Assembly: GCF_036507355.1 (NCBI RefSeq)
Contig: NZ_AP027877.1
Source of the DNA: Escherichia coli
Lineage (GTDB): Bacteria > Pseudomonadota > Gammaproteobacteria > Enterobacterales > Enterobacteriaceae
Length of the DNA: 64,000 nucleotides
Strand: one strand, 5' to 3'
Part shown: in pieces, positions 33,267 through 40,120 of the stretch
Layout of the letters: each line of letters begins with the position of its first letter
Position numbering within the stretch: position 1 is the stretch's first letter
Position numbers and translations under genes: made by a program
The notes under the pieces: generated by a model
The model's input: only the letters and a program-made list of their open reading frames with translations
What the model was told of the DNA's origin: nothing
Database searches by the model: none

Positions 33267-33782
<516 letters not shown>

Positions 33783-33789
33783 CACTAAC

Positions 33790-33815
33790 GCCCGCACATT
33801 GCTGCGGGCTTTTTG
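33790..33815 (+). terminator. Rho-independent terminator after uspF
   Basis: gcccgcacattgctgcgggc followed by ttttt. Confidence 0.7.
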
Positions 33816-33957
33816 ATTCATTTCGCAAATGTGCTGACATTTTCCCCTCTAATCCGTACCATACACGCCACAGTTTTTATATCAGATTTCTTATGCTGGG
33901 CGTTCCGGCATGACGCATACTCTTCTGATGCCATATAACGAATTGAGTCGCTTTTAA

Positions 33958-34010
33958 ATGTCGCAAAATCAAGAAATTAGCAAGAAAGAACAATACAACC
34001 TGAACAAGTA
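33958..34010 (+). pseudogene. ttcC: ttcA 5' remnant (ttcC-like) at the int-distal prophage junction
   Basis: atgtcgcaaaatcaagaaattagcaagaaagaacaatacaacctgaacaag ([17 protein letters not shown]) parallels the start of ttcA at 45115 and contains the shared att core. Confidence 0.65.
33982..34007. repeat. Prophage att core, int-distal copy (direct repeat of 45140..45165)
   Basis: About 26 bp, aagaaagaacaatacaacctgaacaa, occurs again within the start of ttcA next to intR. Confidence 0.75.
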
Positions 34011-34248
34011 AGGGCAAAAATCACAACTATCTGACTCATAAGTGTTTTACTTATTTTTCAATGTGTTAAACATCATCAGCGAGAACAATAAACTACGATA
34101 ATCAACTCTTTTTTTGCCCCTTTTTTGCCCCTTTTGCAGCGTTTTGCCCCATTTTTGCCACAAAAAAAAATTCCAAAACGTCTCAATCAAAGTCAAACCA
34201 ACCGCAGCACGTTCTTGCTTAAGACGTGCTGCGGCATAATCCCAATGA

Positions 34249-34833
34249 TTACTCCCTGACAGGGTTCGTAGGCCACTCAATATCAGGTGCAGTTGATGTA
34301 TCAACACGGTTCAGCAACACCCGATACTTTTTCCAGGCTTCCAGCAATGAGGTTTCTTCCTCCGTTGCGATTTCCAGATCCACAGCATCCTGAAGTGGCG
34401 CAATATGCTCACTGGCTACCTGCATCAGGCTGTTTTTTGTTTCTTCCGCCTCTCGGATCCGGAACAGTTTTTCTGCTTCTGCATCTTTCACCCAGGCTGT
34501 GCCGTTCCACTTCTGAAACTCCCCTTCCGGCGATAACCAGGTAACATTTTCCGGTAACGGACCGAGTTCAGAAATAAATAACGCGTCCCCTGACGCTACG
34601 TCATAAACCGTTTTACCCCGATGGTCTTCAACGAGATGCCACGATGCCTCATCACTGTTGAAAACAGCCACGAAGCCTGCCGGAATATCTGGCGGTGCAA
34701 TATCGGTACTGTTTGCTGGCAGACCTGTATGAGGCGGAATATATGCATCACCTTCACCAATAAATTCATTAGTTCCGGCCAGCAGATTATAAATTTTTAT
34801 GGTCCGTGGTTGTTCACTCATTCTGAATGCCAT
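34249..34833 (-). CDS. tfaR: Phage tail fibre assembly protein
   Basis: 194-aa ORF directly downstream of the tail-fibre remnant; Tfa-like sequence; prophage context. Confidence 0.7.
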
Positions 34834-35737
34834 TATGCAAGCCTCACAATGTAGTTAAATGCGATGTTTTTGACGGTGTTTTCCGCGTTACCCGCAGCGT
34901 TAACGGTGATGGTGTGTCCATGTGAGCCAATCGAAACAGAGTGCGTATGAGCACCAATTCCGACAGTATGTGCGTGAGCACCTGCAGATGCAGCTGTGCC
35001 GCTGACACTATGAGTGTGCGCTCCTGCAGCACTTGTATTCACACTGGCCGCAGACACAACCTTATGTACTGACCCATTTTGTGACTACTGGCTGACTGCT
35101 GATGCGCCTGTGACACTATGAGTATGGTTTCCGGCACTTGCGGCTGTACCGCTCACACTGTGTGTATGTGCCCCGGTGTTATTCGTAGATTTAGTGCCGT
35201 AATCAAACGACGATGTGGTTTTCGTACCCAAATCCGTACTGGATGCGCTGGCGCTGTGGGTGTGCGATTTAATACCGTCCTGTTCCTGAGACAATACGGC
35301 CCGACCACTGGCAGGTTTGCCCTTAATCGTCCAGCCACGCATATCAGGGATCACGCCTGACGGATAAGCGGCTGCAAGTTTCGGGTAAGCAGATTTGTCA
35401 AAAGTTTGCCCCTGCATCAGGGCATAGCCAGACGGAACGGTATCTGATGGCCACGGGATTGGTGCACCGACTGGATAAAACTCTGCAGGAGGATGAGCTG
35501 AGGTGTAAAGCTGCGCCCACGGCGACCAGTTTGCGTCGGTCGTATCCCGTCGTGAACGAATAAATGCCGGAGCATGAGCACCGCTTGTACCACTCCAGCC
35601 GATGAGTAACTCACCTTCGCCAACGGCTGTCATCCCTTTCAGGTGAATGATATTTCCATACGCTGTTGGATATCCGTTGTTATACACCTCGTATAACTCA
35701 AGACCTGTTGCCCCCTGCGTATTGTCTGTCAGCGCGG
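34833..35737 (-). pseudogene. stfR: Side tail fibre gene, C-terminal remnant with an internal frame break
   Basis: Two ORFs (35085..35687 and 34833..35057) in different frames with G-A-H-T-H-S-V-S-G-type repeats typical of tail-fibre C-termini; the N-terminal about 800 codons are absent. Confidence 0.65.
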
Positions 35738-36238
35738 TTAGCCGCCATTGTCACCAAGAAAATCCCCGCCCTGCGACATAGCGATGGAAAGAGCAGGTAT
35801 TGATTCGTAGTACGCCAGCATTTCAGAAAGGATCGCATCCAGTTTCCTTATCGGAAAATAGGCCTGGTCATAGTTGCGATCCACCCGAAACTGGAACTCG
35901 TGATAATCATCATCGAGCTGAATGAAGTATTTACACCCGACCAGTTTTGCCTGGTCGAAACAGGCATTACGGGCGTAAAAAATTGAGCGGCGGTCACAGA
36001 AATTATCGGCTTCGTCAAAACGACTGGCGATATCGGCTTTGGAAAACACCAGCACCTGTTCACCAAATTCAGCCATGTACTGATGCCGTGTCTTATCTTC
36101 ATCATCAACAACGATAAAAATTTTCCCGGTATAGCCAGCACGACGCAACGTCCGGTAAGTCAGAACTTTGTCCGGTCGCCCGTGAGTCAGAATAAAGGCG
36201 CAAAAATCATCACGCATATTCCTCCTCCTCACCACCAT
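35738..36238 (-). CDS. Prophage hypothetical protein (ydaY-like); possible nucleotide-sugar transferase-like N-terminal fold
   Basis: 166-aa ORF overlapping the upstream gene by 29 nt; motifs …IFIVVDDED… and …QLDDDY… resemble GT-A/DxD signatures (eyeball inference); abuts the tail-fibre deletion junction. Confidence 0.45.
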
Positions 36239-37001
36239 GCATGATCTCCACCATGCGCTGCGTCATCCGGACAAATCCATTTTCAATAGCCTGCTGATAA
36301 TCAATGATCACCAGCGCCGACTCCTCGAAAAAACACTGAATTTCAGCGGGGGCGTGAGCGTAATAGTCCGCAATTCTGCTGAAATTAAACACCGTGTGAC
36401 GTTCTGCCGCACACAGGAGGAATTTCTCAATATCAGGCTCAAGGGACGCCGAACGTATCCGGCTGATCAGCTCCTGAGTTTTCGTATCGTCGTACAGTTC
36501 ACTGATATCCGGTTTACCGCCCGACGGCTCATAAACAGGCGTATCAATTTTCGTCGTATACGGCTCCTCCTCATTTCCTGTACCGGGCAAAACATCCGTC
36601 AACAGTTCATCAATTTCTGTCGGGATGAAGCCTGTCAGGGAGACATCAAAATCAGCATTGATTAGGTCCGACAGCTCCATCCGCAACAGATCTTCATCCC
36701 AGCCAGCATTCATCGGCAGGCGATTATCTGCCAGGCGGTACGCCTTTTTCTGCTCATCCGTCAGGCCAGACAGAACAATGACCGGAACAGAATCCATTTT
36801 GAGCATTTCAGCCGCCATAACACGACCGTGACCCGCAATAATTTCGCCCTTTTCGTCAATCAGCACCGGATTAGTCCAGCCGAATTGCTTAATACTTTCT
36901 ACCAGTTGTGCCACCTGCTCAGTACTGTGCGTCCTGGCGTTGTGCGCATACGGTGACAATTCTTGTAATGGGCGATAGACTATCTTTAATTTCTCGCTCA
37001 T
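36210..37001 (-). CDS. ParB-like nuclease (ParB N-terminal) domain protein, prophage-encoded (ynaK-like)
   Basis: 263-aa ORF; N-terminus …YRPLQELSPYAHNARTH…LVESIKQFGWTNPVLID…IIAGHGRVMAA…VPVIVL…AYRLADNRL matches the ParB/Srx-fold signature. Confidence 0.6.
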   Translation of the reverse strand: MSEKLKIVYRPLQELSPYAHNARTHSTEQVAQLVESIKQFGWTNPVLIDEKGEIIAGHGRVMAAEMLKMDSVPVIVLSGLTDEQKKAYRLADNRLPMNAGWDEDLLRMELSDLINADFDVSLTGFIPTEIDELLTDVLPGTGNEEEPYTTKIDTPVYEPSGGKPDISELYDDTKTQELISRIRSASLEPDIEKFLLCAAERHTVFNFSRIADYYAHAPAEIQCFFEESALVIIDYQQAIENGFVRMTQRMVEIMHGGEEEEYA

Positions 37002-37138
37002 ACAGCCTTGCTTTATGAATAAAACGCACCCCAGCAGCCAGTGCTACTGGGGACGGAGGTGTTGCTGGTAAAGTTAGGTATTGGATCAATGAGTGAGTCA
37101 ACATAATATTAAACTCACAATTATAAATCAGCCATATA

Positions 37139-38596
37139 TTAGGAGCGCCAAAAAAAACCTGAAAACAATATAATAACAGGATAAATTTCAAGGCGACCAA
37201 GAATCATAGCTATGCACATTAAACATTTTGCAATGTCATTAAGCACTCCGAATGACGATGCAGTAGCCCCAAAACCTAATCCCATATTATTAATACATGC
37301 AGCCACTGTTGCAAATGATGTAAGAAAATCATATCCCATACCATTTAACACCAGTATAAAAAACACCGTGAAGAGAGTATAAAGAAAAAAGAAACTCCAT
37401 ACAGACCTCATTACACGATCTGTAACTATCTTCCCTCCTACATTTACACTCAACAACGCTCTGGGATGAGAAAGCTGATTTATCTCGTGTTTGCTTTGTT
37501 TGAAAAGTATAAGAAATCGAAGTGACTTAATTCCACCACAAGTTGAACCTATACATCCCCCAAAGAAACTTGACAACAGCAAAAACACTATCGTGTGCGT
37601 GGGCCAACTTGCATAATCCTGCGTAGCTAAACCATTATCAGTGAGCATGGAGCTGGCAAGAAAAAACGAATGAATAAAACTTCCATGCAAGTCATACATA
37701 CCTATATGCCAGACCTGGAAAGAGGTAACAATGATCACCCCTAAGGCTATTAACAGAAAGAAACGAAGTTCAATATCTCTGATTAAAGGTTTTATCGTTT
37801 TCCTGCTAATAACAATATACCAAAGAGTGAAGTTGAAAGCCGATAGCAGGGAAAAAGAACCAGCCACCAGCTCAACCAAATAGTTATTAAAATATCCGAT
37901 ACTCTCGCTATGAGTTGAGAAACCACCAAGCGAAACTGTGGAAATCCCGTGACAAATAGCATCAAACAAAGGCATTCCTGCAAGTCTATAACAGACAATA
38001 CAAGCAATACCTAATAAAGAATAAGTTATCCACAGTGTCCGTGACGTATCGGCCAGGCGGGGAGTGAGTTTGTCATCCTTAAATGGCCCCGGCATTTCTG
38101 ACTGATAAAGCTTTGCACCACCAATACCCAATAATGGCAATACAGCAACCGCCAGAACAATAACTCCTAAACCACCTATAAAATTTAACTGTGACCGATA
38201 GTACAAATATGCCCGAGGTAATGAACTAACATCATCAATTACAGTTGCTCCTGTTGTTGTTATTCCAGAAACCCCTTCAAACAGAGCATCAATGAACGTT
38301 AAATTAAGTTCTGAGTCAATCCATAAAGGGAATGCACTAATAACAGAAAACAAAATCCAAAACATTACAATTATAATAAACCCATCACGGGTACGTAATT
38401 GAATGCCAGATTTCTTAGTTGTATACCACGCTCCGCCACCAATGCAAAAAAATATAACGAAAGTTATAAAGAAAACGAACAGGCTTTTTTCTTTATAAAA
38501 CAATGCTACAACCATTGGTGGCAACATTGAAAGACTATAGAGCCAAACCAGGAACCCACACATATGAGTAACAACTCTTACATGAGATGTATTCAT
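37139..38596 (-). CDS. trkG: Trk-system potassium uptake protein (prophage cargo)
   Basis: 485-aa multi-TM TrkH/TrkG-family ORF from the internal ATG (MNTSHVRVVTH…). Confidence 0.8.
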   Translation of the reverse strand: MNTSHVRVVTHMCGFLVWLYSLSMLPPMVVALFYKEKSLFVFFITFVIFFCIGGGAWYTTKKSGIQLRTRDGFIIIVMFWILFSVISAFPLWIDSELNLTFIDALFEGVSGITTTGATVIDDVSSLPRAYLYYRSQLNFIGGLGVIVLAVAVLPLLGIGGAKLYQSEMPGPFKDDKLTPRLADTSRTLWITYSLLGIACIVCYRLAGMPLFDAICHGISTVSLGGFSTHSESIGYFNNYLVELVAGSFSLLSAFNFTLWYIVISRKTIKPLIRDIELRFFLLIALGVIIVTSFQVWHIGMYDLHGSFIHSFFLASSMLTDNGLATQDYASWPTHTIVFLLLSSFFGGCIGSTCGGIKSLRFLILFKQSKHEINQLSHPRALLSVNVGGKIVTDRVMRSVWSFFFLYTLFTVFFILVLNGMGYDFLTSFATVAACINNMGLGFGATASSFGVLNDIAKCLMCIAMILGRLEIYPVIILFSGFFWRS

Positions 38597-38733
38597 ATCT
38601 AAATATTCTTTCAATTATAACCACCTTGCTGCAATATTATGATTATACTGTATAAAATTTAACTCCTCTTAGATCTTACTTCACTGTTCCTTATGAAACA
38701 ATCATCAAAATGAATCATATTGTAGTTAAGATT

Positions 38734-38862
38734 TTACTTTAAACACTGCTCGGTTATGTATTGCTGAGCACCTTCAAGTTGGGCCTGCATCATTACCAGT
38801 CGTTCCCGGAGGGTGAAATAATCCCGTTCAGCGGTGTCTGCCAGTCGGGGGGAGGCTGCATT
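38734..38862 (-). pseudogene. rzpR: 3' ends of phage lysis genes Rz/Rz1 (rzpR/rzoR-like), 5' parts replaced by IS3
   Basis: Minus-strand translation …ADTAERDYFTLRERLVMMQAQLEGAQQYITEQCLK*, with an embedded +1-frame proline-rich Rz1 tail (…QPPPDWQTPLNGIISPSGNDW*). Confidence 0.65.
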
Positions 38863-40120
38863 TGATCCTACCCACGTAATATGGACACAGGCCTAAGCGA
38901 GGTTCTGGTTTTCAAATTGTTCCGGACTGAGGCCGCCACACCAACTGTGCCGCCGCCACCGATTGTAATCACATTCGATATAATTAAACACCGTTGCCCG
39001 CATTATTTCCCGGCTGATAAAGTGTTCTCCATGGATACATTCCACTTTCAGCGAATGAAAGAAGCTTTCCACGCAGGCATTATCGTAGCAGCAACCTTTT
39101 GCGCTCATACTTCCACGCAGATTATGCCGCTTCAGTTGCGCCTGATAATCTGCTGAACAGTACTGGCCTCCACGGTCCGTGTGAACGATAACGTTCCGGG
39201 GCCTCTTACGCCGCCACAGCGCCATCTGCAGGGCATCGCAGGCCAGTTGCGCCGTCATGCGTGGCGACATTGACCAGCCAATAACGGCACGTGACCACAG
39301 GTCAATGACCACTGCCAGATACAGCCAGCCTTCATCTGTACGTAAGTACGTGATGTCTCCTGCCCACTTCTGGTTCGGGCCACTGGCGTAAAAATCCTGC
39401 TCCAACAGATTTTCTGACACAGGCAGGCCGTGTGCGCGGTAGCTGACCGGGCTGAACTTCCGGGAGGCCTTTGCCCTCAGTCCCTGACGGCGCAGGCTTG
39501 CCGCCACGGTTTTTACGTTAAAGGGGTAACCCTGAGCACGCAGTTCATCCGTCAGGCGTGGGGCACCGTAACGCTGTTTTGACCGGGTAAAAGCCGCGAG
39601 GACAACGCTGTCGCAGTGTTGGCGGAACTGCTGACGCGTGCTTATCCTTGTCCGCCGCTGACACCACGTATACCAGCCGCTGCGGGCCACCCGGAGCACG
39701 CGGCACATTGCTTTGATGCTGAACTCAGCCTGATGTTTTTCAATAAAGACATACTTCATTTCAGGCGCTTCGCGAAGTATGTCGCGGCCTTTTGGAGGAT
39801 AGCCAGCTCTTCATCCCGTTCTGCCAGCTGGCGTTTGAGACGTGCAATCTCGGTAGACATCTCCAGTTCACGTTCAGAAGACGTCTGCTGATTTTGCTGT
39901 TTACTGCGCCAGTTGTAGAGCTGTGATTCATACAGGCTGAGTTCACGGGCTGCGGCAGTAACACCGATGCGTTCAGCAAGCTTCAGGGCTTCACTGCGAA
40001 ATTCAGGCGAATGCTGTTTACGGGGTTTTTTACTGGTTGATACTGTTTTTGTCATGTGAGTCACCTCTGACTGAGAGTTTACTCACTTAGCCGCGTGTCC
40101 ACTATTGCTGGGTAAGATCA
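38863..40120 (-). mobile_element. insEF: IS3 (1258 bp); insE/orfA 39756..40055, insF/orfB 38893..39759
   Basis: Terminal IRs TGATCCTACCCACGTAATATGGACAC… and …GTGTCCACTATTGCTGGGTAAGATCA; orfA/orfB transposase pair; flanking triplets differ, so no 3-bp target duplication. Confidence 0.9.

Follow-up and report, generated by a model that had tools for sequence, protein, structure and literature searches.

What does a gene for a ParB-fold protein do directly upstream of a glycosyltransferase (GT) gene in the remains of a lambdoid prophage, and are the two genes still able to work together? The question is raised by an overlapping gene pair at positions 35738-37001 of a 64,000-nucleotide stretch of the Escherichia coli contig NZ_AP027877.1 (assembly GCF_036507355.1), the whole of which is referred to below as the window. 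A first-pass annotation of the window had noted two overlapping open reading frames (ORFs) here, and had suggested that they might be rarer intact versions of genes that are short fragments in strain K-12. Both ORFs are present as claimed, on the minus strand at 36210..37001 (263 aa) and 35738..36238 (166 aa); at their longest they share 29 nt. Both are real genes and not chance ORFs. The idea of intact versions, however, applies to the ParB-like gene only, the GT being a 5' half that ends at a deletion junction. What remains here is the stump of a cassette of two genes from the late operon of a Rac-type lambdoid prophage. The identity of the domains and the decay of the locus can be regarded as very nearly certain, while the explanation as a whole is one that we hold with moderate confidence, and a role of the intact cassette in DNA glycosylation is more tentative. 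The features on which the argument depends are:

36210..37001, minus strand: ParB-like gene, intact, 263 aa, pI 4.5, the full-length version of K-12 YnaK; stop codon 36210-36212
36597..37001, minus strand: ParB/Srx N-terminal domain (NTP-binding type), codons 1-135; N21/R23 correspond to Box I, the GERR box is G57-H58-G59-R60, and D92-N93 is invariant
36531..36596, minus strand: predicted disordered linker, codons 136-157, holding most of the motif Y148-T149-x-K-I-x-x-P155-x-Y157-E-P159
36213..36530, minus strand: helical acidic C-terminal domain (CTD), codons 158-263, with the motifs FLxxAAxRHxxFxF, IAxYY and ExSALVIID
36210..36217, minus strand: 8-nt overlap of GT start and ParB-like stop, ATGCGTGA
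36220-36230, minus strand: Shine-Dalgarno run GAGGAGGAGGA, preceding Met8 of the GT ORF
35741..36217, minus strand: truncated GT pseudogene, codons 1-159 of a 310-codon TAGT-family (GT-A) gene, with R14 and the DDD motif (D102-D104) kept
35738..35741, no strand: deletion junction, with tail-fibre sequence up to 35740 and the GT gene from 35741; microhomology of at most 3 bp
37029..37052, minus strand: terminator-like hairpin (10-bp stem with 7 GC pairs, T-run) downstream of the trkG stop and 28 nt ahead of the ParB-like start

The ParB-like gene and the truncated glycosyltransferase gene

The ParB/Srx N-domain claimed for the 263-aa protein is borne out by Pfam ParB_N (1.9e-6), by phrog_620 ('ParB-like partition protein'), which matches across the full length (1.3e-90), and by a PDB profile match to Noc (1.5e-11), and the protein thus belongs to the ParB/Srx N-domain superfamily (PF02195). 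PDB sequence searches returned matches to the N-domain only, and for the CTD of about 100 aa neither a Pfam family nor a PDB structural match was found. N21, R23, G57, R60 and D92-N93 are conserved across the family, in which the GERR box reads GHGR and the position of the catalytic Glu is taken by His, Asn or Gln. The NTP binding and specificity of a ParB fold cannot be read from sequence (PMC12704722). The linker motif extends two residues into the CTD segment; Y157 is invariant and the Tyr-Thr pair (Y148-T149) near-invariant. An antisense ORF of 142 aa inside the gene (36237-36665, plus strand) is not independently supported; in all likelihood it is a shadow ORF.

With the CTP-switch clamps of partition ParB proteins (Spo0J, Noc, KorB) the window protein shares the ParB/Srx fold and the equivalents of the phosphate-binding residues R23, R60 and N93, but it is strongly acidic, has His for the Glu of GERR, and lacks a helix-turn-helix (HTH) motif and a ParA/parS context. 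Neither an HTH nor a known CTD was seen in its structure model or Pfam matches, and the neighbours of the gene are trkG and the GT, not parA. A canonical partition ParB was considered and rejected, the score against TIGR00180 being 38 bits for a cut-off of 58.45 and covering residues 11-94 only. The N-domain is far nearer to phage ParB-DNA-methyltransferase fusions than to partition ParBs: it is 47-53% identical to the N-domains of annotated fusions, and the protein matches PADLOC MTase_II (1.7e-38, positions 13-151/436) and phrog_498 (8.9e-51, positions 31-171/633). It is not itself such a fusion, as only its first 135-145 residues match and the rest is the CTD.

The 166-aa ORF had been guessed to have a GT-A nucleotide-sugar transferase fold, and this proved correct. 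The ORF matches Pfam TAGT (PF20691; 9.8e-24, model positions 4-140/205) and phrog_842 (3.1e-55, positions 1-140/270), and IFIVVDDED and QLDDDY are the conserved acidic motifs of the family. Its intact orthologue matches both profiles almost throughout (TAGT 2.6e-34, 4-205/205, a match found for 24 of 24 family members; phrog_842 1.6e-103, 1-269/270). The complete GT-A catalytic apparatus, R...DDD...ED together with the C-terminal half, is not present in the window copy, which ends at codon 159, lacks E188-D189 and has lost 11 of the 17 invariant positions of the family (K167...H261). A PDB sequence search with the GT gave no match, and a single-sequence AlphaFold model of the 310-aa protein was discarded as unusable (pLDDT 37).

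The GT probably starts at Met8 of the longest ORF (ATG at 36217), giving 159 native codons, because all homologues and both profiles begin there, GGAGG lies 6 nt upstream, and PGAP chose the same start. With this start the two genes overlap by 8 nt, and the overlap and the Shine-Dalgarno run in front of it indicate translational coupling. An overlap of 8 or 11 nt is common to most homologous pairs.

Base-by-base comparison with an intact prophage places the junction at 35740/35741. Homology to the intact 310-aa prophage gene (locus L002 7545-8477) starts exactly at window position 35741, and the TAA stop codon of the 166-aa ORF (35738-35740) is supplied by the tail-fibre side. From 35741 to 38862 (3.1 kb) the window is 99.9% identical to the prophage of E. 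coli NMBU-W10C18, and to the left it is unrelated; relative to that prophage approximately 21 kb is gone, including terS, terL and the portal, head and tail genes. In a megablast comparison with 5,426 complete E. coli genomes, sequence left of about 35742 matched a tail-fibre gene and sequence to the right matched ynaK, hypothetical genes and trkG, and the junction was spanned by none of these genomes. The comparisons point to an illegitimate deletion which joined GT codon 159 to a tail-fibre remnant and left the enzyme dead. With the GT truncated, the local pair is unable to work as a module. The 99.9% identity of the flank indicates that the deletion is recent, and the intactness of the ParB-like gene therefore says nothing about selection. 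At least 1000 contigs encode an identical 263-aa protein, and three E. coli contigs an identical 159-aa protein (BED22554.1).

The intact pair in other viruses

The local copy is of little weight, being one more deletion scar in a Rac remnant. The interest lies in the strictly paired cassette of a partner domain and a TAGT enzyme, which comprises at least 1,300 clusters at 50% identity, adjoins packaging genes in viruses whose hosts belong to at least four bacterial phyla and the haloarchaea, and contains a partner domain without known relative. In a tblastn search the 310-aa GT was present in 36 of 50,697 phage records at 27-47% identity. The carriers include the Lactobacillus phages phi jlb1, c5, LL-Ku and Ld17, Haloarcula virus HHTV-2, Nocardia phage NTR1, a Porphyromonas phage and 190-kb Vibrio phages. 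A phmmer search against 1.84 billion representatives gave 1,321 clusters (50% identity) at E <= 1e-3, 492 of them at E <= 1e-30.

In the carriers examined, with the exception of the Vibrio phages, a ParB-like gene lies upstream of the GT on the same strand, with an annotated overlap of 4-29 nt. The gene upstream of the Vibrio phage GT, annotated as a 139-aa 'hypothetical', encodes the CTD only. The regularity was assessed in a neighbour survey restricted to the best 80 loci of two scans. For the GT, 80 diverse IMG/VR loci were collected with a GT alignment as seed, and all ORFs were scored with HMMs of both families. Among the GT clusters at 85% identity (n=55), the upstream gene encoded ParB-N plus CTD in 46 and the CTD only in 5; the remaining 4 were cut by the contig end, so that a partner stands upstream in every readable case (51 of 55) and none is partnerless. 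The distance from partner stop to GT start is mostly -10 or -7 nt, that is an 11- or 8-nt overlap, and an overlapping upstream ORF is visible even on the 1-2-kb contigs of distant GT representatives. In the reciprocal survey, seeded with a CTD alignment, the GT follows immediately downstream in 78 of 78 CTD proteins. The partner has a pI of 4.05-4.6 in every lineage, and the GT is mostly basic (pI 8-9.4).

Downstream of the pair lie terS-like and terL genes of at least five unrelated families. The pair stands directly before the terminase genes in E. coli, Lactobacillus, Nocardia, Porphyromonas and Haloarcula viruses, and in phage c5 the cos site directly precedes it. The pair had earlier been placed where packaging genes sit in lambdoid phages, and this is in line with the intact prophages, which carry terS and terL immediately downstream of it. 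In view of the pairing in both directions and the varied terminase families downstream, the conserved unit is the CTD plus the GT, placed ahead of the packaging module; in most cases the CTD protein also carries a ParB N-domain. The CTD-only partners retain the linker motif, and their existence shows that the CTD has a function of its own and is not just a tether for a ParB domain.

Among the 150 best GT representatives no fusion of ParB or CTD to GT was found. GT homologues do occur fused to a second TAGT domain, to Methyltransf_23, to a P-loop NTPase domain or to a galactose-3-O-sulfotransferase-like domain (the fusion proteins are P0269, P0268, P0248, P0252, P0282, P0286, P0271, P0311, P0320 and P0285). 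The fusions to a second GT, a sulfotransferase and a methyltransferase suggest that the transferred sugar may be extended and tailored into a glycan. Three metagenomic loci have unusual arrangements: L124 (7015-9525) contains two tandem pairs of CTD-only protein and GT, L145 (6847-8903) has a Methyltransf_23 gene between the CTD-only gene and the GT, and in L144 (5924-8858) a fusion of ParB-N to an N6/N4 DNA methyltransferase lies directly upstream of the pair.

In databases the two proteins are called 'chromosome (plasmid) partitioning protein', 'transcriptional regulator', 'ParB-like nuclease', 'GREB1-related protein' and 'beta-glucosyl-HMC-alpha-glucosyltransferase'. None of these transferred names is a tested function for this subfamily, and 'beta-glucosyl-HMC-alpha-glucosyltransferase', 'partitioning protein' and 'transcriptional regulator' should be flagged as misleading. 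Our literature searches on ynaK and on ParB together with TAGT returned nothing functional. The earliest mention of ParB/TAGT associations is probably that of Iyer et al. 2013.

A possible role of the intact pair in DNA modification

Of the readings considered, late, post-replicative glycosylation of phage DNA by the GT and its partner is the likeliest, and we put it forward as a tentative proposal. The two proteins would form a complex through the CTD, and the complex would transfer sugar from a nucleotide-sugar onto phage DNA late in infection, before or during packaging. The ParB-like subunit may be an activator or DNA-loading factor, as ParB176 is for 5mYOX176, and the purpose could be anti-restriction, that is the shielding of the injected genome from host nucleases. 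A DNA-modification module was one of the options considered in the first-pass annotation, in agreement with the function favoured here. We favour it because of the 5mYOX analogy, the kinship of the N-domain, the slot in the genome and the enzyme family.

The ParB-N-DNA methyltransferase fusions (phrog_498; PF02195 plus PF01555) share both the N-domain and the slot with the window pair, and presumably they too modify DNA late, before packaging. In Psychrobacter phage pOW20-A a ParB-methyltransferase fusion occupies the same position, after a Q-like antiterminator gene and immediately before terS/terL. In the fusions the methyltransferase effector is covalently attached, whereas the window pair joins the N-domain to a novel CTD and has a separate, coupled GT as its effector. 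A 2025 survey describes the ParB fold fused to methyltransferases in prophages, binding various NTPs, with glycosyltransferases unmentioned (PMC12704722), and ParB proteins had earlier been proposed to direct modification machinery during packaging (as cited in PMC8256090). The closest functional analogy comes from a 2026 study in which ParB176, consisting of a nucleotide-binding domain (NBD) and a CTD with no DNA-binding domain (DBD), was required for the thymine dioxygenase 5mYOX176 to act on dsDNA (PMC13229309). The commonest neighbours of phage 5mYOX genes are GTs, ParBs and terminases (PMC13229309). Both systems have a DBD-less ParB-like protein beside a post-replicative DNA-modifying enzyme, in the 5mYOX176 case often near terminase genes, and the architecture of NBD, linker and CTD is analogous; the two ParB-like proteins are likened by this architecture and not by CTD sequence. 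They differ in that the enzyme is an Fe/2OG dioxygenase in one case and a GT-A glycosyltransferase in the other, for which CTD-only partners are known. The window protein is not itself a 5mYOX-associated activator, as no dioxygenase is annotated in the prophage or in c5 or recurs among the surveyed neighbours. The cassette would thus extend the theme of ParB-fold proteins as partners of DNA-modifying enzymes, so far shown only for the dioxygenase.

TAGT ('TET-associated glycosyltransferase') has a GT-A fold (PMC13216743). The family also holds the T2/T6 beta-glucosyl-HMC-alpha-glucosyltransferase and, according to the literature, the trypanosome base-J glucosyltransferase (JGT) and GREB1. T6 ggt matches phrog_842 at full length (5e-78) and TAGT at 1.3e-8, and T2/T6 ggt, other phage GT-A DNA glycosyltransferases and JGT share with the GT studied here the TAGT family, phrog_842 and the R...DDD...ED pattern. 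The characterised DNA glycosyltransferases take as acceptor a 5-hydroxymethyl-pyrimidine or a sugar attached to one, and are encoded beside the enzymes making those bases; T6 ggt, which has no CTD partner, lies between uvsX and gene 42, adjoining dCMP hydroxymethylase. 'Solitary' TAGT homologues are reported, without explanation, from 288 of 753 phages (PMC13216743), and 65% of GT contigs are without a neighbouring base-modification enzyme (bioRxiv 10.1101/2023.12.21.572611). The cassette bears on the role of many such enzymes.

Several observations weigh against DNA glycosylation by the pair. Neither a 5mYOX/TET-JBP protein, a dCMP/dUMP hydroxymethylase nor a C5-MTase is annotated in the complete c5 genome (31.8 kb) or the intact E. 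coli prophage, and no enzyme making hydroxymethyl-pyrimidines recurs among the surveyed neighbours of the pair. With no such enzyme annotated, the usual acceptor, 5-hydroxymethyl-pyrimidine, would not be supplied, and we know of no glycosyltransferase for canonical DNA bases. The ParB-like protein is strongly acidic, a DBD cannot be recognised in it, the catalytic Glu of its GERR box is His, and the CTD-only partners imply that some lineages do without the ParB N-domain. In addition, hhalign of the GT family against T6 ggt detected no similarity (E 0.57), and the link to characterised enzymes is transitive, via the shared Pfam and PHROG profiles. A functional orthologue of T2/T6 ggt was rejected on this comparison and because the annotations of the intact prophage and of c5 contain neither a hydroxymethylase nor an alpha/beta-GT. 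The transferred name 'beta-glucosyl-HMC-alpha-glucosyltransferase' is unsupported as a function for this subfamily, since the profile comparison detects no direct similarity to the T6 enzyme and both the CTD partner and the hydroxymethylase context differ. A more specific form of the proposal, in which the pair would be a self-sufficient two-subunit enzyme glycosylating non-hydroxymethylated, canonical phage DNA (base or backbone) before packaging, we consider unlikely. If true, glycosylation of canonical DNA would be a modification chemistry without known precedent, common to tailed viruses of Bacteria and Archaea. Intact copies in ordinary E. coli prophages and induced phages (strain NMBU-W10C18, phage vB_EcoS-473R12) make the proposal testable in a standard host; one intact E. 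coli pair consists of WP_001291105.1 and WP_020233805.1.

The strongest rival explanation, though a doubtful one, is that the pair is one of enzyme and substrate, the GT glycosylating its acidic partner (at Y148, T149 or Y157) or a different protein of phage or host. This would yield a glycosylated and possibly sulfated or methylated acidic protein, serving for instance as DNA mimic, decoy or virion component. In line with this, the CTD protein is the only constant companion of the GT, in both directions, it is uniformly very acidic, unlike a DNA binder, and the absence of an annotated hydroxymethyl-base pathway in c5 and the intact prophage is what a protein acceptor would lead one to expect. 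The invariant Tyr and near-invariant Tyr-Thr lie in a predicted disordered linker, as is typical of acceptor or docking peptides, and are retained in CTD-only partners; the motif could also be a docking element. Glycogenin and the toxins of clostridia or Photorhabdus, likewise of the GT-A type, glycosylate Tyr or Thr, which also counts for a protein acceptor. So does the TAGT-family member GREB1, a protein O-GlcNAc transferase (PMC7968844). On the other side, the bacterial and phage members of the family characterised to date act on DNA (PMC13216743; bioRxiv 10.1101/2023.12.21.572611). Furthermore, the N-domain of the partner is about 50% identical to that of DNA methyltransferase fusions, and the pre-terminase slot is that of late DNA-modifying enzymes. 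An acidic upstream gene overlapping a basic downstream gene by 8-11 nt also resembles the layout of a type II toxin-antitoxin (TA) system, and the pair is found in prophages beside morons such as trkG. It is conceivable, if improbable, that a host molecule is the target of the basic GT and that the coupled acidic partner restrains the enzyme, in host takeover or possibly in abortive-infection defence by the prophage. For the GT and the 69-aa ORF that follows it in the intact prophage, however, PADLOC gave no defence-family match, and the ParB-like protein matches only the ParB-N part of MTase_II. The pair is fixed in the late or packaging slot and not in variable defence islands, it is carried by the small cos phage c5 (integrase unannotated), 190-kb Vibrio phages and an archaeal virus, and the fusions to glycan-tailoring enzymes fit a biosynthetic role.

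The position immediately before terS/terL could also mean that the ParB-like protein aids terminase at pac or cos, like the HNH proteins of HK97-like phages, with the GT as a passenger, and some ParB-N proteins do carry nuclease names in Pfam and PDB. This is very improbable, as the association spans unrelated terminase families in cos and headful-type phages, what always accompanies the CTD is the GT and not a terminase, CTD-only forms lack the ParB N-domain, and the Vibrio phages hold the pair among replication genes, far from the terminase genes. That the two ORFs are themselves decayed terminase genes, the 263-aa ORF a small and the 166-aa ORF a large subunit, had been raised in the first-pass annotation as the ordinary alternative. 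Apart from the position nothing speaks for it and its probability is negligible: PHROG, Pfam and NCBIfam gave ParB and TAGT matches and zero terminase matches, and in intact prophages terS (364 aa, phrog_51 2.4e-76) and terL are separate genes downstream of the pair. There is likewise only a slight chance that the orphaned ParB-like gene is kept for a function of its own, independent of the GT, as a regulator or an anti-plasmid or anti-phage factor. Its ORF is intact where the neighbour is not, identical copies of the protein abound in Enterobacteriaceae, and some NCBI records call fragments of it 'transcriptional regulator'. Against this stands the recent date of the deletion, together with the fate of the gene in other E. 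coli strains, where it is frameshifted, truncated at many points (K-12 ynaK included) or fused to varied downstream fragments, and the CTD is never found without the GT in the surveyed loci. A terminator-like hairpin lies 28 nt before the start, no convincing promoter was found between trkG and the gene, and the upstream late-operon region has been lost to an IS3-associated deletion. The orphaned gene is probably poorly transcribed. Given the hairpin, the missing promoter and the missing late-control region, it is best seen as orphaned, most likely a recently orphaned bystander and not a maintained gene.

The Rac remnant and its K-12 counterpart

In the intact Rac-type prophage of E. coli NMBU-W10C18 the order is holin, endolysin, lysis protein, trkG, ParB/Srx protein (263 aa), a 310-aa 'hypothetical', a 69-aa ORF, terS, terL, portal, head and tail genes. 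The other E. coli record that was examined calls the 310-aa protein GREB1-related protein. Late transcription of the pair in an intact prophage would need read-through of the hairpin at 37029-37052. The remnant in the window has the order ttcA, intR, recT, recE, [IS3], rzoR', trkG, ParB-like, GT', stf', tfaR, uspF, ompN, with the following features on the two sides of the pair:

37139..38614, minus strand: trkG, a moron that in Rac-type prophages separates the lysis genes from the ParB-like gene
34249..35687, minus strand: C-terminal remnant of the tail fibre (ORFs 35085-35687 and 34833-35057) and tfaR, on the far side of the deletion
34249-34833, minus strand: tail-fibre assembly gene tfaR

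The K-12 counterparts had been given as ynaK and ydaY, and of these only ynaK stands. It consists of the first 86 codons of the ParB-like gene (98.8% identical) and lies downstream of trkG, the homology stopping at window position 36748. The two Rac remnants have thus been cut at different points, K-12 from about codon 86 of the ParB-like gene onward and the window strain from GT codon 159 onward. K-12 ydaY (locus L172 3622-3981) has no similarity to either window protein. Its counterpart in an intact prophage (locus L256 38262-38621) lies between the tail tube and tape measure genes, a slot which is that of the tail assembly chaperone and is unrelated to the missing part of ynaK or to the GT.

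The tail-fibre remnant is split into two ORFs with His-rich repeats, and its 5' end was cut by the same deletion that truncated the GT. An IS3-family element at window positions 38863-40100 (orfB 38893-39759, orfA 39756-40064, minus strand) adjoins the truncated rzoR, and the early-right and late-control part of Rac, from recE to rzoR, is missing beside it. Between tfaR and uspF (33782-34249) the pinR and ynaE genes of K-12 Rac are absent; this pinR-less arrangement is common to some E. coli (e.g. NCTC9064), and pinR is kept in others.

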